From Bacteroidota bacterium (GTDB lineage: Bacteria; Bacteroidota; Bacteroidia; Bacteroidales; JAAUTT01), in NCBI GenBank assembly GCA_021779665.1, contig JAJYAG010000001.1, positions 67,396 to 131,395 of the forward strand: a stretch of DNA of 64,000 nucleotides, in the 5' to 3' direction. The notes beneath the pieces are model-generated. The model made no database searches. It saw only the letters and a list, made by a program, of their open reading frames with translations, and was not told where the DNA came from. Shown here one piece after another: positions 42,690 to 50,601 of this stretch. The first letter of the stretch is position 1. Each line of letters begins with the position of its first letter. The position numbers were made by a program, and so were the translations under genes.

Positions 42690-42790
42690 CGACAGCTAAT
42701 GCAGAATACAAGTCGATAATCGATAGTCTATCGACTAAACGCTATTGACCTGTATTCTTGTATTGGCTATTGACCATGGACTAAAAGCTA
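42690..42790. repeat. degenerate relative of the same repeat family (copy D)
   Basis: GTCGATAATCGATAGTCTATCGAC...TATTGACC...GGCTATTGACC...CTATCGAC. Resembles copy B with C-to-T changes. Confidence 0.4.
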
Positions 42791-45700
42791 TCGACTAACT
42801 TTAACCACCTCTCCATCAATCCAATATTTCATCTCATTTGTATAATAAAGGTAAGTACAACTTGCGGGGGCCTGGTAAGTTCCGGCGATTTCGGATCGTA
42901 AGTCGAGCTTTATTTCTTTCTCTTCGCCTGGTGCCATTTCTCTGTAATACAGCACTAAAAGATTCTTATTCACTTCATAGAAATCTACTTTGCCTTTTTC
43001 CTGAATCTCTTTTAACTGCCAGGGCTGCAGACTTAATCCTGAGGGTATTCCGATGATTGCCATTGTCATAGGCAATCCATCATTGGTGATATTCCGAAGT
43101 TTAATGTTCATACGTACCGTTTCTCCAACCCTTGTATTATGAGTGGAAAGGGCTGTTTCTAAAAGTAACTTGCTATCAGGATGCGATGCCGGGGTGCTGC
43201 TGTTCCATGATGCATCGAACGAAAAGGGCATTGAAGCCTGTGTGCCTGAAAACCTGATTAGGACTTTATTGGTACCTTCCTGAAGATATTTTTCAAATCG
43301 TGCAAGAACAATCTTCCCCTTGTCACCCTTCCTGAAACTTTGTGAACCGGCATTGCTGCCATTGATAATAAGGCTGATTTCTCCATCGCTGTTAACCTGG
43401 GCCGACTGGAGTGAATAAGCCGTAAGGGCCTTTAAGGCAAGAATGGTGGCCTGTGTTGATCCAAAACCTCCATAAGAGCGGGAAGAAATAATAAAATTGA
43501 CTGATTTTTCAAGCTCACTCCAGCTATACAGGGTGGTTTTTAACGCTGCCATGATATACAAGGATGCTGTTTCAACCTGTAACGATTTTCCATAAGAATG
43601 AGTAAACGAAGGTTGAATAGTTAACTGATCCCAACTTTTGTTATCTATCTTTTTTTGAATCATTTCCAGCATCTTACTTCCATCATTGGTTTTCTTATAA
43701 TTAAAGGCTGCATTCGCCATCAAAGCCAGGCGGTAAGGATCCTCGCTCTTTAAAGCTTCCTGCTTTGCCAGTTCATATTCAGTATCAATTTTATCAATTC
43801 CGGCTTCCGATAAAGCATAAACCACATAGGCATTGGTAACCTGGTCGCTTGTGCCGCCAAAGCTATATTTCTGATAGTTATCGCCTTTGAAGTTGCCTTT
43901 CCCATCGCGGTGTTTCAGAATCCATTTCAGGGTTCTGTCCATCATCGCCTGGTCAACGTCATCGTAAACAGCTTTCATATCGGTAAATTCCATAAATCCA
44001 TAGGCAGTGAGGCCTAAATGTCCGGGCGCATGACCAAACCATTCAAAACCATTCTGGGAGGTTTCAAAGCTTTTTAAACGGTCATACCCTGTTTTGATAA
44101 GTTTGAGTGCCCTTTGCGAAACCATTGCCGTATCCATGCCTCTGGATTTCAGGTATTGTAAAACCATGATGTTTGGATAAGTGCTCGACGAAGTCTGTTC
44201 AAAACAACCATAAGGTTCCCTCAGAATCGATTCAATACCCGATAATAGATCGCTCAGAATGTCAGGATAAGCTGAAAACTGGGCTTTTAAGGAACCCGGA
44301 ATGGCCTTGCTGATTGTAAATGTGAAGTTCTTTTCCGTCTCCTTTGCCGACACCGAAAAAGATGCAGGAAAACCTTTGGGCTGGATATCAACCTCCTGAT
44401 TAAATGCATCGCTGTTTGTACCACCGTCGAAATTAATCCCAAGTTTTACTTTACCGGCCATATTTCTGACAAAGAATGGAACGGATAAATTACGGTCGGA
44501 AAATGGAGCTATTTCAACTGAGTCGGGTAAAATAGTCAAGGGATTAAGATTCTCAGGAACATAGTATTGCAACTTTCCTGTTAATGTTTTGGATGTATTA
44601 TTTTTAAGAATCAGAGGCATCACAACTGTATCGCCAAAGGAAACATAAGCAGGAAACTTCACAGCCATACTGAATGGCAGCTGGGTATAGAATTTCTTTT
44701 CGGTACGACCCACATCGCCTGTGTTTCCAATACCTTCGGCTACAGCCCTGAAGGTTGTAATTTCGTCGGATGTATAAAATTCCACTTCGGCACTACCGGC
44801 GTTATTGGTACTGATGTTGGGATTCCAGTAAATCGTCGATCTGAAATCGGTCCGTTCCTTAGGTGTTTCATTCTCTTTATAAACCGGATAATAAAACTCT
44901 TTGATGCCAGACAGCCTTCTAGGCGAAATGAGTAAGCCGGAATATCGTGGTTTGAAGCTTTTCTTTAACTGCTTGTAATACCCATTATTGGCCGAAGTTG
45001 TAATCAATATTACCCCATTTGCTGCTCTGCAACCGTAAATTGAAGTAGCGCTCGCATCTTTTAATACCGAAATGCTTGCGATATTCGACACGGGAATGTT
45101 ATGGAGGATTGATTTACTATCGGACAAGGAAGGATCGTAGACAACGCCGTCAACCACATACAAAGGTTCATTCACTGATAAAGCGTTTGTCCCCCGGATA
45201 GTAACCTGCGGCGATACACCTGGCTGACCCTGATCGTTGATAACATTTAACCCGGCAACACGTCCCTGTAATGCCTGGTTAACCATACCCGGCAAGGTTT
45301 GAATATTGCTTGCAGTTACTTTGGTAACTGAGCCTGTAAGATCGGCTTTTCTTTGTGTTCCGTAACCGATTACTACAATCTCGTCGAGGCTTTTCACATC
45401 TTCATCAAGTATCATGTCAGGCCCTTTGCCCATTTCGACTGTTTCGGTAACATAGGATGTAACTGATCTTTTTTTGCTGATTTCCCCGGTCTTTACCTTC
45501 ACAATTTCGGGCATCAGCGATTCTCCGCTTATTGAGGAGCCCAAGCCTGTGCCAGCCAATTCATTCAGATAATCAATTTCTATGTAAATATCAGATATAT
45601 CAATTTCGCTGCTCCGGGCCAACACCTGAATATGTGATGATGCATCAGCATTTTCGAACCTGAAACGACCCAGTTCAGTTGTGCTAACTTTTAAAATTCT

Positions 45701-47443
45701 TTTGCGGTTTTCCAATTCAATTACAACAACTTCCGCTTTTACAGGCTTTCCATCTCTTTTATCCTTAACAGTGCCACTAATACAGCCAATTCTTTCGGCG
45801 GGATAAAGTACATTGTAATTCATTTTCAGGACCTCATTCCAGTAATATCTGCGCCAACCCTGGGTTAATAAAAGGTAATTGAGGGCCTTTTCAGCTTTTG
45901 GTTCTTCAGGGTTGAAATAAAACTCAGGTTTCTCAACTTTCCCTTTGATTTCGGAGCCCAGCAACATCCACGATAGAATATTATGCTGCTTGTCATCGGC
46001 CATGGTCATAAGCTGATCTTTCACAACAGCCAGCGAAAGATTTGCAGCTACCGGAATACTGTCCTTATCGGTTGTACGAATGCTCAGCTTTACCTTCTGG
46101 CGCGGGTTATATTTTTCCTTATCGAACCTTAGAGATATGTTTAAACGCTTATTATAATTGAAGAACATCAGCCGCTCGCAACGAGGATTCCCCTGTCGGT
46201 CGAACAAAGTTGCAATAGCAGTACCAGTAGGAAATTTATCGGCCGAAAATTCTATTTCGTTGCTATTTCCGCCTGCATTTTCGGAATAAGTGAAATAAGT
46301 TCCGTTAGCTGACTGAACCGCAAAATGAACCCTTTCGCCCTGAGGCGCATGATATATAGCTTTATACCTGTTTTCGCCGGCAGGAACCACTCTTAGCGTG
46401 TACCCCCTGGGCATTACTTCGGGCAATTCGAACCTTTCTTTGATTTGAGGTTTCGTAATTACAGCAAAGTAATGCTTTCCGGGAACAGGAAACATTTCGA
46501 AAGCTCCCATTCCCTGGTGAAAGCTGCTGAATTCAAGAATTCTGTTATTGGTATTGTCGGTAATATATCCTTCTACTTCAGCAGGTTTACCAAATTCGTT
46601 TACAGCTTTAAATGCAATATTACCCGGAATATTAGCCACAAGGTATCCTCCTTCCGGAAAGAATTCAATATTGATTTTATTCAAAACAATGGGTATAGAG
46701 CGGGAAACAGCCTCTGTACTGCCTTCGTGCAATATTTTGGCATTGATAAGTCCGTCGCTGCTTTTCAGCGTTTCGGGGAGGATATACTGCAGCATCACTT
46801 TACCTTTATTATCGGTCTGAAGGTCAACCGTTTTTACCTTTTCCCCGGCAAGTGATATATCTGCTTTTACGTTTTTGAAAGTTAAAGGAACATTTTCGAG
46901 TGTTTCAACTTTCAGCTCAGCCTTCACAGTATCGCCCGGGGAATAGCTTTCTCTTTTAAAATCAATCTTTGCCAGCAACCGTGGATAAACCACTTTCTGA
47001 ATCTGAATTTCCTTTTCGAAGTAATAATCCACCCCAAAATTTTTCATCCAGGTGGTGTAAGCCTTTATTTTGTAGAGTCCGCCTGCATAAGAATCGTCGA
47101 TGGTGAAGCTGCCGGAACAAACTCCCTGAATCACCTGAAGTGTCAACGATTTATCAACATTGCTGCGGGGATTGATAAGCTCGATATAAACAACATCCGA
47201 TTGTCGGGATGGGAGATTGGTAGCTCCATCAGTCACAAAAGCCTTGAACCAGATATCTTCTCCGGGCTTGTACAGCGATTTATCTACATGCAGATACACC
47301 TTTTCAAAAGGCTTGTTTTTATAAAAGGAGCTCACAAAGTTCTTCAGAGCAGCAATAAAAGGATCTTCCGACTGGCTGAAATAAACAAAGCCAGAACAAA
47401 TAAGGGTTAATATCAAGGCTGTGGTTATAATTTTTGTTTTCAT
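42788..47443 (-). CDS. alpha-2-macroglobulin family protein with an embedded SusC-type CarboxypepD_reg+Plug module
   Basis: 1551 aa with a signal peptide and N-terminal MG-like domains. CarboxypepD_reg at aa ~553-640 (CISGTVKDKRDGKPVKAEVVVIE). TonB-receptor Plug at aa ~688-816 (IVVIGYGTQRKADLTGSV...NQALQGRVAGLNV...TIRGTNAL...EPLYVVDGV...ISVLKDASATSIYGCRAANGVILITT). Thioester motif GCFEQ at aa 1079-1083 (nt 44195..44209). A2M C-terminal region follows. Confidence 0.8.
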   Translation of the reverse strand: MKTKIITTALILTLICSGFVYFSQSEDPFIAALKNFVSSFYKNKPFEKVYLHVDKSLYKPGEDIWFKAFVTDGATNLPSRQSDVVYIELINPRSNVDKSLTLQVIQGVCSGSFTIDDSYAGGLYKIKAYTTWMKNFGVDYYFEKEIQIQKVVYPRLLAKIDFKRESYSPGDTVKAELKVETLENVPLTFKNVKADISLAGEKVKTVDLQTDNKGKVMLQYILPETLKSSDGLINAKILHEGSTEAVSRSIPIVLNKINIEFFPEGGYLVANIPGNIAFKAVNEFGKPAEVEGYITDNTNNRILEFSSFHQGMGAFEMFPVPGKHYFAVITKPQIKERFELPEVMPRGYTLRVVPAGENRYKAIYHAPQGERVHFAVQSANGTYFTYSENAGGNSNEIEFSADKFPTGTAIATLFDRQGNPRCERLMFFNYNKRLNISLRFDKEKYNPRQKVKLSIRTTDKDSIPVAANLSLAVVKDQLMTMADDKQHNILSWMLLGSEIKGKVEKPEFYFNPEEPKAEKALNYLLLTQGWRRYYWNEVLKMNYNVLYPAERIGCISGTVKDKRDGKPVKAEVVVIELENRKRILKVSTTELGRFRFENADASSHIQVLARSSEIDISDIYIEIDYLNELAGTGLGSSISGESLMPEIVKVKTGEISKKRSVTSYVTETVEMGKGPDMILDEDVKSLDEIVVIGYGTQRKADLTGSVTKVTASNIQTLPGMVNQALQGRVAGLNVINDQGQPGVSPQVTIRGTNALSVNEPLYVVDGVVYDPSLSDSKSILHNIPVSNIASISVLKDASATSIYGCRAANGVILITTSANNGYYKQLKKSFKPRYSGLLISPRRLSGIKEFYYPVYKENETPKERTDFRSTIYWNPNISTNNAGSAEVEFYTSDEITTFRAVAEGIGNTGDVGRTEKKFYTQLPFSMAVKFPAYVSFGDTVVMPLILKNNTSKTLTGKLQYYVPENLNPLTILPDSVEIAPFSDRNLSVPFFVRNMAGKVKLGINFDGGTNSDAFNQEVDIQPKGFPASFSVSAKETEKNFTFTISKAIPGSLKAQFSAYPDILSDLLSGIESILREPYGCFEQTSSSTYPNIMVLQYLKSRGMDTAMVSQRALKLIKTGYDRLKSFETSQNGFEWFGHAPGHLGLTAYGFMEFTDMKAVYDDVDQAMMDRTLKWILKHRDGKGNFKGDNYQKYSFGGTSDQVTNAYVVYALSEAGIDKIDTEYELAKQEALKSEDPYRLALMANAAFNYKKTNDGSKMLEMIQKKIDNKSWDQLTIQPSFTHSYGKSLQVETASLYIMAALKTTLYSWSELEKSVNFIISSRSYGGFGSTQATILALKALTAYSLQSAQVNSDGEISLIINGSNAGSQSFRKGDKGKIVLARFEKYLQEGTNKVLIRFSGTQASMPFSFDASWNSSTPASHPDSKLLLETALSTHNTRVGETVRMNIKLRNITNDGLPMTMAIIGIPSGLSLQPWQLKEIQEKGKVDFYEVNKNLLVLYYREMAPGEEKEIKLDLRSEIAGTYQAPASCTYLYYTNEMKYWIDGEVVKVSR

Positions 47444-47575
47444 GGTTGCAGGTATTAATGTTTTTTAAAAGATGTGGGCGGAATACGAGTCCCCCAAAAA
47501 GATTGTATTTTATTTCAGACATTGTCTGTTCATCTTTACATTGATTTTTGACTCTTTGGTTCTTTGATATGCTGC

Positions 47576-50449
47576 TTAGAGACTTACCTTTATCGAAATT
47601 CCAACACTACTTACCGCCGGCATATTGAAAAGATCCAGTCCACCAGTATTCGATTTCTTCCAGAGGGTTATATTCGGATCGGAGCCGCTATAGCTGGTAA
47701 TGAGTAACGGATTGCGGATGAAAACCGAGATTTCAGGTTTAAAATCACGCATTCTGTAAAATTTATAACTTACTGATATCTCACGGATCCTGAACCAGGA
47801 GGCATTTTCAACCGCATCTTCTGCAACACCGGTCATGCCGTAGCGATACCAGCGATTCTGCTGCAGGGATCGGGTGGGATTGGCAAAATCAACCGGTGTA
47901 GTATTTACAGTGCCATCCTCCTTTACTCCCGGAAAAATATATTCCAGTACCTTCCGCCCTTCAACAGTCTTTTCCGACAAACCCAGGTACGATAAAACAT
48001 TACCCGTGCCGTTCCAAACCTGTCCCCCGTGCCTGTATTCCATTAAGATACTTGTAGTAAAGCTGCCCAAAAAAATTGTCGGTTCGAAACCTATTGTAAA
48101 ATCGGGTTGAGGATTGGCAATCACTTTCAGGTTATCATCCACAAGCGGATAACCATCTTCTCCGATAATCAATTTCCCATTATCATCTCTTCTCCAGGAA
48201 GTTCCAACCACCACACCTGCAGGATATCCTTTTATCAGCGAGGTATGCACATCGGCATAACCGCCTAAGGGAATCTCACGGTTGTTTCCATAAATATTGG
48301 TAACTACAGATTTATAGCTGTCGAAAATAAAACGAAACTGAGAGGACCTGTTGTTGTACACGAAGTTCTGGTAGATTAGAATTTCTGCTTCTATTCCGCG
48401 CGTTCTGGTGGACGCCAGATTCTTCACCAGCACTTCCCCATTTTCCAAAACCGGGAACATTGCATTGGTGGTTTTGTGCTCATAAAAATCAATATCGAGC
48501 GAAATCTTATTATTCAAAAAACCAAATTCTCCACCTGCATCTTTCTTTTCAACCTTTTCGGGAGTAAGACCCAGGTTGGGAATTATTTCGTGCTCAAAAA
48601 GGGTATTGTAAAAATCGGATGAGCGGATGTTCTGAAAGTTATATTTACCAAAAGAACTGTTCATGGCTGCAAAAGAATAATTATATCCCCAGTTGGCTTT
48701 CAGCTTTATTCGTTCAACAAAGCCATGTATTCTGAAGATATCATCAATATTGAAGCCCAATGCATATGTCGGAGCATAAAGCATTTTGTTTCCGTGATAG
48801 TGATTATTTCCACTGAAGTTGTGTGTCATTTTAAGCAATATCCCTTTTCGGAAAGTCAGATTTGAATTCCAGTTTATACTATGTTCTTCGCGGGAAAGAC
48901 TATAGTTTGTTTTTGTAAGTATTTCATCAGACAAAACTTCATCTCTGCGCGCCAATTCTGAATTCACACTGTAATATTCGTACCTTAGCGAAGAGCTTAA
49001 ATCAGCATATCTGAAATATTTGTTCAGGTTAATGCCTGTGGCGGATAAAAAAGACTCCAGCGAACCATTACGGAAAGTATTTGCTGTTTCGTCCATGCCA
49101 ACAGGCACAGATAAAAACCCGGTGTAAACTTTATTTTTTTGGTTTTGATATCTGAAGTCGGTAAAAACTGAAAACTGGCCGGACAGTTTGTATTCAAGAT
49201 TTAACACGCTGTTGATGGATTGCTGGTTCTCCTTATCCTGCATATTATGAAGCAACCAGTAAGGGTGGTTAACTTTACCCGCTGCATAGCTCCTTTGTGT
49301 CCCATTCTCCAGCTGATATGTTTCGGAGGAGTTATATGCATCTCTGGCTTTTTTACCTCCGGTTATATCAAAACTAGGTGGTGATGTTAATATGGAAGCT
49401 ATTACCAGGGTGCTGTTAGGAGAACCGTCGAGGTAGTTGCTTTTTAAATTATCGATGGTAAGTTGTCCTCCAATTTTGAACCTGCCATATACGCGCTTTA
49501 ATTTCAAATCGACAATATTCCCATTACTTTTTTGTCCGGCTAAGATACCCTTGTTTAACTGGTTGCTGAGCGCTATCGAATATTCTTTGCGCTCCGTTTT
49601 AAGAAAAATTTTCAGACTGTTGATATAAGTAAAGCCATTGCAAAATGCTTTTGACGGATCGTAACTCCGGGCCGGATTTCCGTTTCCGGTATTTTTGGGT
49701 ACCAGGCGGCCGTTGGAATCATAATCCCAGCTACTTCCATCAAATTCGAAGTTTTGAAGATTGGGTCCCCAGCTTAGTATTTCGCCGGTTTCGGGCGATT
49801 GCCACTGCGAGGTTCCATTAACCGGCCTTCCCTGTGCAAAACTGCTCTGTAATTTTGGCAACCGGGTATGGTGTTCTGTTGAAACCGAGGTAAAATAAGA
49901 AACATGCGGAATCCGGATGTATTCATCCCTGACCATATTGATCCGTGCCAGATCTTTGCCAAAATCGATACTTCCAATCTTGTTAACTACCATGTCATGG
50001 TCGTGCAACCAGTTATAATCAGGATTTATTACAGAAAAGGAAGGCGTTGAGGAGGTAAACACTGCTCTTCCTTCTTCAGCAGGTAATGTGTCAGTATATT
50101 CCGGGTAAGAAACCGGTACATAACTTCTCTCAGGCTGTGGTTCACCGGAAGTTATGTTCTGACTTTGCCCCCCGGGTTCTGAGTTTTTAACCGTAACGAG
50201 CATTTCTTTGGTGCTAAAACCTATATAAGAGAATACCAGTGTGGATCCCAAAGGGGCATTAATGCTGTAGGTTCCGTTAATATCGGTTACCACACCGGTG
50301 GTGGTTCCTTTAATATTTATGCTAACTCCTATTAATGGCTCCCCGGAACTATCTTTCATGGTACCTCTAATCAAACGCATTTCCTGCGAAAAGGCCATTC
50401 TTAAAGAAAAAAGGAACAGCAGTGTTAAAATTATTTTATAAGGCTTCAT
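47576..50449 (-). CDS. SusC/RagA-like TonB-dependent outer-membrane barrel lacking a Plug domain
   Basis: Signal peptide from the ATG at 50449. CarboxypepD_reg domain (IRGTMKDSSGEPLIGVSINIKG...TDINGTYSI). Long barrel with SusC-like C-terminal strands (ISVFIRNPLLITSYSGSDPN). No TonB-box or Plug consensus between the reg domain and the barrel. Confidence 0.7.
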   Translation of the reverse strand: MKPYKIILTLLFLFSLRMAFSQEMRLIRGTMKDSSGEPLIGVSINIKGTTTGVVTDINGTYSINAPLGSTLVFSYIGFSTKEMLVTVKNSEPGGQSQNITSGEPQPERSYVPVSYPEYTDTLPAEEGRAVFTSSTPSFSVINPDYNWLHDHDMVVNKIGSIDFGKDLARINMVRDEYIRIPHVSYFTSVSTEHHTRLPKLQSSFAQGRPVNGTSQWQSPETGEILSWGPNLQNFEFDGSSWDYDSNGRLVPKNTGNGNPARSYDPSKAFCNGFTYINSLKIFLKTERKEYSIALSNQLNKGILAGQKSNGNIVDLKLKRVYGRFKIGGQLTIDNLKSNYLDGSPNSTLVIASILTSPPSFDITGGKKARDAYNSSETYQLENGTQRSYAAGKVNHPYWLLHNMQDKENQQSINSVLNLEYKLSGQFSVFTDFRYQNQKNKVYTGFLSVPVGMDETANTFRNGSLESFLSATGINLNKYFRYADLSSSLRYEYYSVNSELARRDEVLSDEILTKTNYSLSREEHSINWNSNLTFRKGILLKMTHNFSGNNHYHGNKMLYAPTYALGFNIDDIFRIHGFVERIKLKANWGYNYSFAAMNSSFGKYNFQNIRSSDFYNTLFEHEIIPNLGLTPEKVEKKDAGGEFGFLNNKISLDIDFYEHKTTNAMFPVLENGEVLVKNLASTRTRGIEAEILIYQNFVYNNRSSQFRFIFDSYKSVVTNIYGNNREIPLGGYADVHTSLIKGYPAGVVVGTSWRRDDNGKLIIGEDGYPLVDDNLKVIANPQPDFTIGFEPTIFLGSFTTSILMEYRHGGQVWNGTGNVLSYLGLSEKTVEGRKVLEYIFPGVKEDGTVNTTPVDFANPTRSLQQNRWYRYGMTGVAEDAVENASWFRIREISVSYKFYRMRDFKPEISVFIRNPLLITSYSGSDPNITLWKKSNTGGLDLFNMPAVSSVGISIKVSL

Positions 50450-50601
50450 GGTTAAAATTTTTGGTTCACACTTAGGATGAAGCTCAAAAATTTGTCCCCT
50501 AAAAAATGAATAAAAAAAGTTCAATTCAGCCGCAAGAAATTGTAACTTTCGTTGTCAAACATTCAATTTACTTCCATAATTAACTTCTAAACTATCTAAA
50601 C

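Follow-up and report, generated by a model that had tools for sequence, protein, structure and literature searches.

A SusC-type outer-membrane transporter is split here over two adjacent genes, one encoding a barrel without a plug and the other a thioester alpha-2-macroglobulin (A2M) that carries the plug together with the TonB box. The window, that is, the whole stretch of DNA analysed, comprises 64,000 nt from a Bacteroidota bacterium (GCA_021779665.1, contig JAJYAG010000001.1, positions 67,396-131,395 of the forward strand); on its minus strand, the plug-less SusC-like barrel gene (47576-50449) is followed by the A2M gene (42788-47443). Taken as a whole, the pair is probably best explained as a conserved two-gene operon for a split SusC-type TonB-dependent transporter, the parts of which would dock in trans and serve in envelope defence. 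No published account of such a split between a barrel and a plug-bearing A2M was found in the literature.

Results

The barrel protein lacks a plug

All the features that an earlier note on this DNA had described were recovered in place from the ORF list, Pfam and NCBIfam (Table 1), and only the length of the barrel protein had to be revised. The 982 aa given for it correspond to the longest ORF (47576..50524), which rests on an upstream TTG start; the sensible start is likely the ATG at 50449 (MKPYK..., signal peptide), and the likely product of 957 aa is 100% identical to the database protein P0121.

Table 1. Features of the barrel and A2M genes in the window
Feature	Position (nt)	Strand	Basis
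Plug-less SusC-like barrel gene, 957 aa from ATG at 50449, stop 47576-47578	47576..50449	(-)	ORF list, translation
Barrel signal peptide, aa 1-22, MKPYKIILTLLFLFSLRMAFSQ	50384..50449	(-)	translation; AF2 helix at residues 3-20
Barrel N-terminal CarboxypepD_reg-like domain, aa 27-92	50174..50371	(-)	Pfam PF13715 57.6 bits, PF13620 36.6 bits
Barrel linker at canonical site of TonB box and plug, aa 93-180	49910..50173	(-)	AF2, Pfam, NCBIfam
SusC-type beta-barrel, aa 181-957	47579..49909	(-)	TIGR04056 positions 211-981; AF2 pLDDT mostly >90
Intergenic spacer between barrel and A2M genes, 132 nt	47444..47575	(-)	sequence
Thioester A2M gene with SusC N-terminal module, 1551 aa, stop 42788-42790	42788..47443	(-)	ORF list, Pfam, NCBIfam
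A2M signal peptide, signal-peptidase-I type, aa 1-23	47375-47443	(-)	sequence
A2M N-terminal MG domains, aa 24-476	46016..47374	(-)	Pfam MG2 48-130, A2M_BRD 392-474 (weak)
Conserved helical bait-region-domain segment, aa 477-551, ADDKQ.NIL...LLTQGWRR	45791..46015	(-)	strong conservation in A1, A6
Internal CarboxypepD_reg-like domain, aa 552-640	45524..45790	(-)	Pfam PF13620 at 555-608; AF2
Hypervariable disordered linker, candidate bait, aa 641-680	45404..45523	(-)	homologue comparison, AF2
TonB-box region, aa 681-697, DEDVKSLDEIVVIGYGT	45353..45403	(-)	58% mean identity; within TIGR04056 match 666-817
SusC-type Plug, aa 698-816, with SusC/RagA signature, aa 788-816	44996..45352	(-)	Pfam, NCBIfam, PDB profile
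Return linker from plug to A2M body, aa 817-865	44849..44995	(-)	31% mean identity, length 45-50 aa
A2M C-terminal body, aa 866-1551: A2M/MG7, CUB-like region, thioester, receptor-binding-like domains	42791..44848	(-)	Pfam
Thioester motif GCFEQ, aa 1079-1083	44195..44209	(-)	translation

The sole domain that Pfam recognised in the barrel protein is CarbopepD_reg_2 at residues 27-91, within the SusC-type N-terminal extension, which AF2 predicts as a beta domain (pLDDT 79-88). The linker that follows is smaller than a plug, largely disordered and hypervariable among homologues (pLDDT <50 at 95-152 and 53-62 at 151-180), and neither Pfam nor NCBIfam found a Plug or TonB-box match in it. A custom plug HMM matched neither this protein nor the barrel ORFs of homologous loci, though ordinary SusC plugs in the fetched loci scored 101-156 bits. 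The AF2 model of the whole protein (pLDDT 86.6) consists of the CarboxypepD_reg-like domain (24-90), a disordered stretch (95-152) and a confidently predicted barrel (181-957), a layout that therefore leaves no plug domain. The absence of Plug and TonB box claimed in the earlier note is thus borne out by Pfam, NCBIfam and the custom HMM, as well as by structure prediction. The barrel is of the 22-strand type, and the best Foldseek matches of its model were the SusC proteins BT2264 (5fq6; E = 2.9e-44, TM 0.67), BT1763 and RagA.

The A2M protein carries a SusC N-terminal module

The combination of MG-like N-terminus, CarboxypepD_reg domain, Plug and CxEQ motif in a single 1551-aa A2M, as the earlier note had it, is upheld by Pfam, NCBIfam and translation, and HMM scans of both proteins placed a Plug in the A2M and none in the barrel protein. 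The A2M belongs to a family of more than 1400 database proteins; in a PDB profile search with the window protein, the best match was human A2M. No conserved Cys or lipobox was found at the N-termini of the homologues. AF2 predicts beta domains at residues 352-476 (pLDDT 80-90) and helices at 489-539, between A2M_BRD and the insert. In the C-terminal body Pfam recognised A2M (870-958), TED (1057-1343) and A2M_recep (1459-1537); this part aligns with residues 726-1423 of human A2M (172 bits), and its AF2 model, of high confidence, is closer to native A2M-family structures than to activated ones. The thioester motif is invariant in A1 and A6, with CFEQ present in 83/83 homologous loci.

The insert, situated at the bait-region position, consists of a CarboxypepD_reg domain, a hypervariable linker, the TonB box and a SusC-type Plug, in that order. 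The PF13620 match to its first domain (555-608; 23.9 bits) lies under the cut-off of 32.3, and the region 552-626 is a confident AF2 beta domain (pLDDT 78-89); PF13620 is annotated in many A2M homologues. The linker, a candidate bait, had a mean pairwise identity of 15% and a length of 31-56 aa among 15 homologues, compared with 44-58% identity in the flanking parts, and a pLDDT of 25-40; its place corresponds to that of the human bait region, for the alignment with human A2M picks up again at residue 726. The TonB box, the only one in the gene pair, has four invariant residues (D682, L686, E688 and Y694), and most of the 80 homologues with a plug have a motif of the E-V-V-V-x-G-Y type.

Pfam Plug matched residues 699-811 with 59.8 bits (cut-off 23.9), residues 788-816 correspond to the SusC signature TIGR04057 (59.8 bits, cut-off 46.2), and in the PDB profile search the domain matched the plugs of SusC and RagA with E values from 7e-41 to 1e-33. 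It is a generic SusC plug, with no specific kinship to the plugs of the SusC clade that is sister to the barrel. Beyond it, the return linker is predicted with mixed confidence and contains one short strand (835-839). Identity among homologues is 44% for the Plug and 58% for the TonB box, next to 50% for the MG and TED domains; judged from these alignments, the inserted module is under purifying selection, with its SusC signature intact. In isolation the plug is poorly predicted by AF2 (pLDDT 38-65, with confident flanking domains), which is consistent with a fold that depends on a barrel.

The two proteins match complementary parts of the SusC model TIGR04056. Residues 666-817 of the A2M cover model positions 56-204 (181.9 bits) and residues 181-957 of the barrel protein cover positions 211-981 (193.9 bits); neither protein alone reaches the cut-off of 368.25, and the summed scores amount to 375.8.

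The gene pair is conserved across Bacteroidota

Comparison of 83 A2M loci, which span many orders of Bacteroidota, showed a plug-less barrel beside the A2M gene in 77 and a Plug within the A2M in 80. Of the six barrel-free loci, two end at a contig edge. In the reciprocal search, an A2M gene followed the plug-less barrel in all 11 cases with downstream sequence, and the association is far beyond chance. The median spacer between the two genes measures 4 nt, and 46/61 homologous loci have at most 20 nt. Operon coupling is tight and co-inheritance strict across the phylum. Barrel and A2M distances correlate with r = 0.88-0.92 (75 pairs), and the partial-Mantel signal of plug-barrel co-evolution is 0.22, no stronger than for other A2M domains. 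The window spacer, for which ORF coordinates and sequence confirm the reported 132 nt, is longer than usual, and no minus-strand terminator-like site was found in it. Two loci (L061 and L067) have adequate flanks yet no barrel nearby, and one (L050) has kept its barrel with a degenerate A2M plug. Loci of the Chryseobacterium type have a single barrel and, next to it, a second protein with a Plug, and one-to-one pairing is therefore not universal.

The same comparison disposes of the reading of the two ORFs as an artefact, be it one gene broken by a frameshift or by mis-assembly, or a pair of decaying pseudogenes. A nearly identical public assembly does have a stop within the A2M gene (TAA for GAA at codon 903), but this nonsense difference hits an invariant Glu in that assembly and not in the window, where both ORFs are intact and each has its own signal peptide. 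With the two-gene layout present in 77 independent genomes of at least five orders, the single-gene reading is effectively refuted.

In five A2M variants (P0076, P0082, P0088, P0108 and P0120; loci L003, L163 and L164), TonB_C stands where the Plug is otherwise inserted, and the adjoining barrel gene is absent in 3/3 loci. Presumably, ordinary transporters would offer these variants a docking site in their TonB boxes. The idea that the two genes encode complementary parts of one SusC-type machine, put forward in the earlier note, is backed by the halves of TIGR04056, by co-inheritance and operon coupling, and further by these variants.

It could still be argued that the two genes are co-transcribed while their products do not dock, the barrel being a hollow passive pore and the A2M Plug a vestige, a decoy or a part of the bait. 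'Type S' Bacteroides SusC-like transporters, which are naturally lidless and often plug-less, have been read as hollow small-sugar pores, and BACOVA_04505 with an engineered plug deletion still moves small sugars; plug-less SusC-family barrels can thus be made and can function (bioRxiv 10.1101/2025.11.13.688124). The low AF2 confidence for the isolated plug and the persistence of the L050 barrel beside a degenerate plug point the same way. On the other hand, Plug, TonB box and SusC signature are conserved like functional A2M domains in 80/83 loci, an A2M follows every plug-less barrel of the present family with known downstream sequence, and the barrel is lost in the TonB_C variants, whereas one would hardly expect an independent hollow pore to follow the type of A2M insert. 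We therefore regard coexistence without docking as quite unlikely.

Discussion

The first gene would give rise to a barrel in the outer membrane that has an N-terminal extension on the periplasmic side and neither TonB box nor plug, and the second to a Sec-exported, non-lipidated thioester A2M with a complete SusC N-terminal module inserted into its bait-region domain. Most likely, the barrel receives this plug in trans, and a periplasmic protease trap is thereby anchored beneath the outer membrane. In canonical TonB-dependent transporters the plug begins and ends on the periplasmic side, and a plug is therefore possible as an insert in a periplasmic protein. The A2M plug would enter its partner barrel from below, seal a pore that would otherwise be open and hold the 170-kDa trap directly under the membrane. 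It would also bring the bait-like linker and the sole TonB box of the two proteins to the mouth of the barrel on the periplasmic side. As the bait abuts the TonB box, its cleavage and the pulling of TonB on the plug may be mechanically coupled. The most likely role would be envelope defence, in which proteases that break through or cross the outer membrane are captured covalently. We infer docking in trans, a place in the periplasm, a role in defence and gating of any kind. Braun and colleagues reportedly found in 2003 that the cork and barrel of FhuA, exported as separate chains with a signal sequence apiece, formed an active transporter in vivo; that was a laboratory construct in which one protein was cut, whereas the split in the window is natural and ancient, with the plug internal to an unrelated large protein.

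Alternatively, the same architecture might serve mainly as a nutrient importer for TonB-dependent uptake of peptides or proteins, in which the A2M body, as a periplasmic receiving or ratchet device, would covalently capture or hold incoming polypeptides for nutrition, not defence. The best structural matches of the barrel include BT2264 and RagA, which we take to be peptide-associated SusC proteins, the conserved TonB box implies energised movement of the plug, and the nearest plug-bearing relatives of the barrel, its sister clade, are ordinary SusC genes with a SusD-like gene (SusD-like_2) directly downstream in all three loci checked. Yet the pair has no SusD lid or surface binding protein for substrate capture, no peptidase or permease is conserved beside it in loci with annotated neighbours, a single-use thioester fits repeated transport cycles poorly, and a hypervariable bait-like linker is a hallmark of protease trapping, which makes nutrition an unlikely purpose.

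Very unlikely, in our view, is an arrangement in which the barrel exports or displays the A2M, the plug staying in the lumen and some portion of the A2M facing outward against external proteases. Bacteroidota SusC barrels do usually partner with surface-exposed proteins, and a related locus (L082) encodes a different Plug-bearing protein with a type IX secretion C-terminal domain. However, the A2M has neither a lipoprotein signal nor such a domain, a plug with both ends in the periplasm, as in known transporter structures, speaks for the inner side, and a folded A2M half of 60-100 kDa is too large for a plugged 22-strand barrel.

Docking in trans, the reading we prefer, can be set against several known systems. 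Canonical SusC/RagA proteins (TIGR04056; BT2264, BT1763 and RagA) consist of the same building blocks in the same order, namely a CarboxypepD_reg extension, a TonB box (EVVVxGYG), a signature-bearing Plug and a 22-strand-type barrel. Here, in contrast, plug module and barrel are two polypeptides, the plug lies inside a 1551-aa A2M and there is no SusD lid; the flanking genes encode no SusD, which agrees with the earlier note on the missing SusD/RagB partner. The Type S transporters resemble the window barrel in having neither plug nor SusD partner, but a plug encoded by a neighbouring gene has not been described for them, whereas the present family is paired with a Plug-bearing A2M. The TonB_C-bearing variants share with the window A2M the scaffold, CarboxypepD_reg domains, insertion point and thioester, and differ in the inserted domain and in having no adjoining plug-less barrel gene.

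Type I bacterial A2Ms (E. coli ECAM/YfhM and Salmonella SaA2M) are Sec-exported and periplasmic, as the window protein probably is. They share with it MG domains and a bait region, a thioester domain of the CxEQ kind and, at the C-terminus, an MG/receptor-binding-like domain, and its AF2 model agrees with ECAM and SaA2M in their native conformations. Type I proteins are associated with the inner membrane and encoded beside PBP1c (PMC5764988). The window A2M, by contrast, lacks a conserved lipobox and a PBP1c partner, none being encoded by the flanking genes, where the earlier note had suggested looking; its partner is a plug-less SusC barrel, its bait-region domain holds a plug module, and human A2M (172 bits) is closer in sequence to its C-terminal half than ECAM and SaA2M are (about 55 bits). 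The type II protein MagD of Pseudomonas (magABCDEF operon) achieves membrane association via an operon-encoded partner (PMC5764988), as the window A2M would. MagD, however, has no thioester, and MagB holds it at the inner membrane, whereas the window protein has an invariant thioester and a putative barrel tether in the outer membrane.

Among the readings in the earlier note, that of an unusual anchoring mode for a bacterial A2M appears to fit best, because the A2M has a signal-peptidase-I signal, no conserved lipobox and no PBP1c neighbour. Both known types of bacterial A2M are anchored at the inner membrane, and anchoring at the outer membrane would set this family apart from them if docking holds true.

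A SusC-like barrel without a plug

The anatomy and the conservation of the barrel–A2M gene pair are firmly established. The first protein of the pair, a SusC-like barrel, gives a single Pfam match, to a CarboxypepD_reg-like domain at residues 27–91, and its residues 181–957 cover positions 211–981 of TIGR04056, the NCBIfam SusC/RagA model (981 positions; curated cut-off 368.25 bits), at 193.9 bits. The second, a thioester alpha-2-macroglobulin (A2M), matches positions 56–204 of the same model at 181.9 bits. Each of these scores lies below the cut-off while their sum, 375.8, exceeds it, and the split of the model between the two chains makes them complementary pieces of one family model. The SusC/RagA signature TIGR04057 is found on A2M residues 788–816 (59.8 bits against a cut-off of 46.2) and not on the barrel. 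Together with the Pfam Plug match, these scores bear out the earlier note, which had placed a SusC-type plug inside the A2M protein. In the SusC family, the TonB box and the Plug belong on the chain of the barrel itself; here both are carried by the A2M.

The note had also described the barrel as lacking a plug, and HMM searches and structure prediction agree: none was detected in this protein by Pfam, by our own plug HMM or in the AF2 model (34 homologues, mean pLDDT 86.6), and an EVVVxGYG-type TonB box is absent from the segment that follows the N-terminal domain. As modelled, the roughly 90 mostly disordered residues that precede the barrel cannot make a plug of roughly 130–150 residues. 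In the Chitinophaga-type homologues, the whole pre-barrel region amounts to only about 100 residues, signal peptide counted in. Foldseek matched the barrel model to BT2264 (5fq6; E = 2.9e-44, TM 0.67), followed by BT1763 and RagA. A SusC-type barrel, predicted to be of the 22-strand class, is supported by TIGR04056, AF2 and Foldseek. Neither protein has a dedicated model in NCBIfam or PADLOC, and no PADLOC defence model matched the barrel, the A2M or the two small flanking ORFs.

Features of the gene pair, its proteins and the homologous loci (L, locus; P, database protein)
Feature	Location	Strand	Basis or remark
Barrel ORF, TTG start	from 50524	minus	ORF list; 982 aa possible
A2M ORF	42788-47443	minus	1551 aa; same direction as barrel, begins 132 nt past its stop
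Small ORF, 169 aa	50602-51111	plus	divergent from barrel gene
Small ORF, 113 aa	42024-42365	minus	downstream of A2M
N-terminal beta domain	barrel aa 24-90		AF2
Disordered stretch	barrel aa 95-152		AF2, pLDDT <50
Weakly predicted hairpin	barrel aa 158-172		AF2
Confident barrel	barrel aa 181-957		AF2, pLDDT mostly >90
MG2	A2M aa 48-130		Pfam
A2M_BRD (weak)	A2M aa 392-474		Pfam
Helical, conserved bait-region-like segment	A2M aa 489-539		AF2
CarboxypepD_reg fold, confident	A2M aa 552-626		AF2
CarboxypepD_reg (sub-threshold)	A2M aa 555-608		Pfam
Disordered stretch	A2M aa 628-711		AF2
Plug	A2M aa 699-811		Pfam, 59.8 bits (cut-off 23.9)
Plug, poorly predicted	A2M aa 712-831		AF2, pLDDT 38-65
A2M domain	A2M aa 870-958		Pfam
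TED (TED_complement)	A2M aa 1057-1343		Pfam
Thioester GCFEQ	A2M aa 1079-1083 (nt 44195-44209)	minus	translation
A2M_recep	A2M aa 1459-1537		Pfam
MG domains; MG7, CUB, TED and C-terminal domains, confident	A2M		AF2
Loci without adjoining barrel (6/83)	L045, L072; L061, L067; L071; L003		contig edge; none in flank; degenerate plug; TonB_C variant
Barrels lacking CarboxypepD_reg, Chitinophaga/Chitinophagaceae type	L037-L040, L042, L043, L046, L049, L056, L058-L060, L062, L063, L075, L081, L095-L097, L107		
A2Ms with TonB_C in place of Plug	L003:384-5201, L163:7001-11887, L164:7001-11887		P0108, P0082, P0076; also P0088, P0120
Second Plug-bearing protein	L076:482-3064, L082:562-3153, L108:3642-5924; also L078, L080		order: short cytoplasmic N-terminus, one transmembrane helix, Pro-rich spacer, TonB-box-like IDEVVMIGYG, Plug (51-62 bits), VWA

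A macroglobulin with an inserted plug module

The second protein has the domain array of a macroglobulin. A PDB search with a profile built from 15 family members finds human A2M, CD109, TEP1 and C3, and Foldseek on the AF2 model (residues 352–1551, 51 sequences) retrieves native A2ML1, CD109, TEP1, ECAM and SaA2M; the model lies nearer to native than to activated A2M-family structures (TM ~0.41 versus ~0.22). The thioester was found by translation exactly where the earlier note had put it. From about residue 869 onwards, the protein aligns with residues 726–1423 of human A2M at 172 bits, with ECAM and SaA2M reaching only ~55 bits, and residues 677–849 align with the plug regions of solved SusC/RagA chains (E 7e-41 to 1e-33). 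We take the bait region of human A2M to lie at about 690–728 in precursor numbering; if so, the alignment places the insert, residues 552–865 (CarboxypepD_reg–linker–TonB box–Plug), at the bait position.

Within this insert, the linker at residues 641–680 has a mean identity of 15% and a length of 31–56 residues among 15 homologues, in which mean identity is 58% for the TonB-box segment, 44% for the Plug and ~50% for the MG and TED domains. This disordered stretch, hypervariable and directly followed by the pair's sole TonB box, resembles a bait region both in appearance and in position and is a candidate bait. The signal peptide of the A2M is of the signal-peptidase-I type, and no conserved Cys or lipobox is present at the N-termini of the A2Ms in the family.

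The gene pair in the window

The likelier start of the barrel gene is the ATG at 50449; the resulting 957-aa protein opens with a typical signal peptide (MKPYKIILTLLFLFSLRMAFSQ) and has the same sequence as database protein P0121. The surrounding genes are of the housekeeping kind (class-V aminotransferase, DNA alkylation repair protein, MFS transporter, M24 peptidase, inorganic pyrophosphatase and short-chain dehydrogenase) rather than glycan-utilization genes. No SusD/RagB gene is found among them, as the earlier note had stated; none adjoins the pair in the homologous locus L002 either, and the sole SusD-like gene in L001 is the partner of a separate canonical SusC ~6 kb downstream. The note had further named a PBP1c gene as the usual A2M partner; here none occurs among the genes flanking the pair, nor is any transglycosylase or transpeptidase gene present within ~10 kb of it in the window, L001, L002 or L165. 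A promoter and terminator scan gave nothing above shuffled expectation, Bacteroidota promoter types being outside the models of the tool, and the TAnnTTTG motif is absent from the spacer and from the region upstream of the barrel. Of the two small flanking ORFs, the 169-aa one has no Pfam or PADLOC match and is annotated as a gene in a public metagenome-assembled genome (MAG); the 113-aa one overlaps the start of the aminotransferase gene, has no match and is probably not a gene.

It could be argued that the pair is an assembly artefact or a pseudogene. The window and a public MAG contig (DAIEJK010000100.1; GCA_027352335.1) are identical over 7850 nt save for one base, at window position 44737. 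A G in the window makes the codon GAA, for the invariant A2M residue Glu903; a T in the MAG makes it the stop TAA, which divides the A2M in two, with products of 902 aa and 626 aa. Sequencing error or a nonsense mutation would account for the stop in the MAG copy. As both ORFs are intact in the window and the layout recurs in the homologous loci below, the artefact or pseudogene reading was rejected.

Conservation across Bacteroidota

Among the candidates scored, 1439 database proteins belong to the A2M-plus-Plug family at E <= 1e-10, annotated merely as 'TonB-dependent receptor plug domain-containing', 'MG2 domain-containing' or 'alpha-2-macroglobulin-like'. In a scan of one genome per species, at least 574 stretches had relatives of the A2M, and such relatives occur in no fewer than 574 species-representative genomes from all over Bacteroidota. 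The best 80 loci come from Bacteroidales, Marinilabiliales-type taxa and Dysgonomonas; Cytophagales; Flavobacteriales (Aquimarina, Winogradskyella, Flavobacterium and Chryseobacterium); Chitinophagales; and Sphingobacteriales. HMMs derived from the window family were then run on six-frame ORFs of 83 loci. The A2M carries a Plug in 80 of the 83 and is adjoined by a plug-less barrel in 77, directly upstream in 76 and downstream in 1, which answers the question raised in the earlier note of whether the pair is conserved elsewhere. Our plug HMM had no match in the barrel ORFs of the surveyed loci, the ordinary SusC plugs in the same loci scoring 101–156 bits. The median gap from barrel stop to A2M start is 4 nt, CFEQ is retained in 83/83 A2Ms, and most have the E-V-V-V-x-G-Y TonB-box motif. 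A reciprocal search of metagenomes with a barrel alignment of eight sequences gave a plug-less barrel followed by an A2M in all 11 cases having downstream sequence.

Pairwise distances of barrel and A2M body are correlated at r = 0.88–0.92 over 75 pairs, which indicates that the two are inherited together. A partial Mantel test that related barrel distances to plug distances, with the A2M body as the control, gave a coefficient of 0.22 (p = 0.001), no larger than for other A2M domains, so this signal is not specific evidence for contact.

Several loci depart from the common arrangement. Barrels of the Chitinophaga/Chitinophagaceae type (~840–870 aa) lack even the N-terminal CarboxypepD_reg, and their A2M partners retain the full module. 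At L050:3089-7615 and L071:2871-7403 the plug of the A2M is degenerate or truncated. The first of these still has its TonB box (LSEVVVTGY) and a barrel next to it; in the second the plug remnants are rearranged and there is no barrel upstream. One pair (L069, contig JASGCW010000030.1) comes from a MAG labelled Limnohabitans (Betaproteobacteria), all other loci being from Bacteroidota, and this contig is probably mis-binned.

Alternative inserts and a second plug donor

In some family members, a TonB C-terminal domain (PF03544) replaces the Plug at the same insertion site, preceded by a TonB-box-like EMAVVGFG motif and a Pro-rich, charged spacer. No barrel gene was found near these variants in any of the three loci examined, so that the type of insert predicts the presence of the barrel. 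Among the indirect arguments that the job of the Plug is to engage the barrel, this one is the strongest, and it also suggests that the A2M insertion site serves as a slot into which modules for docking at the outer membrane are fitted. The simple one-to-one model of barrel and plug is complicated by some loci of the Chryseobacterium/Weeksellaceae type, where a second Plug-bearing protein, itself not a barrel and with YfbK_C or a type IX secretion C-terminal domain after its VWA domain, is encoded directly upstream of the plug-less barrel. A single barrel is thereby flanked by two plug donors.

Origin of the split system

The closest plug-bearing relatives of the barrel, found at nine loci (576–661 bits on the barrel HMM), have the canonical CarboxypepD_reg–Plug–barrel order and no A2M. 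In the three of these sister loci checked (L086, L089 and L091), a SusD-like_2 gene lies directly downstream of susC, the position that the A2M gene takes next to the plug-less barrel. On this evidence, the split system looks to be derived from an ordinary susC–susD pair, with the A2M now in the place of susD. Descent of the A2M plug from this same sister clade is unsupported, as the sister plugs score 118–128 bits with the A2M-plug HMM and other SusC-type plugs 101–156. The other neighbours in the sister loci (L086, L089, L091, L094 and L103) are type IX-secreted LTD/Calx-beta or PKD proteins, an arylsulfotransferase-like protein and an M14 carboxypeptidase, and no shared substrate theme is evident among them.

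Discussion

TonB-dependent transporters are defined by a barrel and a plug on one chain, and to our knowledge only two types of bacterial A2M have been recognized, both associated with the inner membrane. The pair would be a natural split transporter and a third, outer-membrane-anchored type of bacterial A2M. Canonical SusC proteins (TIGR04056) have Plug, TonB box and barrel on one chain and an adjacent SusD/RagB gene, whereas the window pair has two chains and no SusD. Type I A2Ms associate with the inner membrane, their genes lying beside that of PBP1c, and the type II protein MagD has MagB as its tether to the same membrane (PMC5764988). Unlike type I proteins such as ECAM and SaA2M, the window A2M has neither a lipoprotein anchor nor an adjacent pbpC (PBP1c); unlike MagD, which lacks a thioester and belongs to the six-gene mag operon, it has a thioester and a two-gene barrel–A2M operon. 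The nearest report, on Bacteroides, describes 'Type S' SusC-like pores that are lidless and often lack a plug, together with an engineered deletion of the plug (bioRxiv 10.1101/2025.11.13.688124). These pores are interpreted as stand-alone hollow barrels in sugar-utilization loci, whereas the barrel described here is followed by a Plug-bearing gene (77/83 homologous loci and 11/11 in the reciprocal search). A full-text literature search returned no account of an A2M with a TonB-receptor plug or of a naturally split TonB-dependent transporter. The pair thus appears as a widespread variant of both SusC transporters and bacterial A2Ms, the mechanism of which we infer.

The plug of TonB-dependent transporters with solved structures has its two ends on the periplasmic side, so a plug that is an internal domain of a periplasmic protein could enter a barrel from below. 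Our favoured reading is a SusC-like complex of two chains, where the plug of the A2M would seal the barrel and, by sitting in it, anchor the protease trap beneath the outer membrane, with the bait and the TonB box at the periplasmic mouth of the barrel. There may be a precedent in FhuA, the cork and barrel of which, exported separately, reportedly assemble in vivo (work attributed to Braun et al. in 2003). Any coupling of bait cleavage to TonB action is speculation. The earlier note had proposed a two-component TonB-dependent gate, and we consider it unlikely that the pair is a protease-triggered, TonB-energized outer-membrane gate, with the A2M as sentinel and its bait abutting the TonB box of the barrel-held plug. 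Under such a scheme, an invading protease that cut the bait would at the same time spring the thioester trap and free the N-terminus just before the TonB box; the plug could then be extracted by TonB, so that a dedicated outer-membrane channel would be opened or irreversibly altered, for expulsion, signalling or controlled permeabilization. If this were true, protease sensing akin to innate immunity would be coupled to outer-membrane gating driven by the proton-motive force and, more broadly, Plug and TonB_C would be interchangeable modules with which Bacteroidota dock periplasmic proteins at the outer membrane.

The favoured docking of the A2M plug in the barrel would, if true, provide a natural system for studying the insertion and extraction of a plug in trans, and would mean that Plug and TonB_C are able to act as portable outer-membrane docking modules. 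It would also make it possible to test whether protease sensing is linked to outer-membrane gating in a phylum that is dominant in polymer degradation in gut, soil and marine environments.
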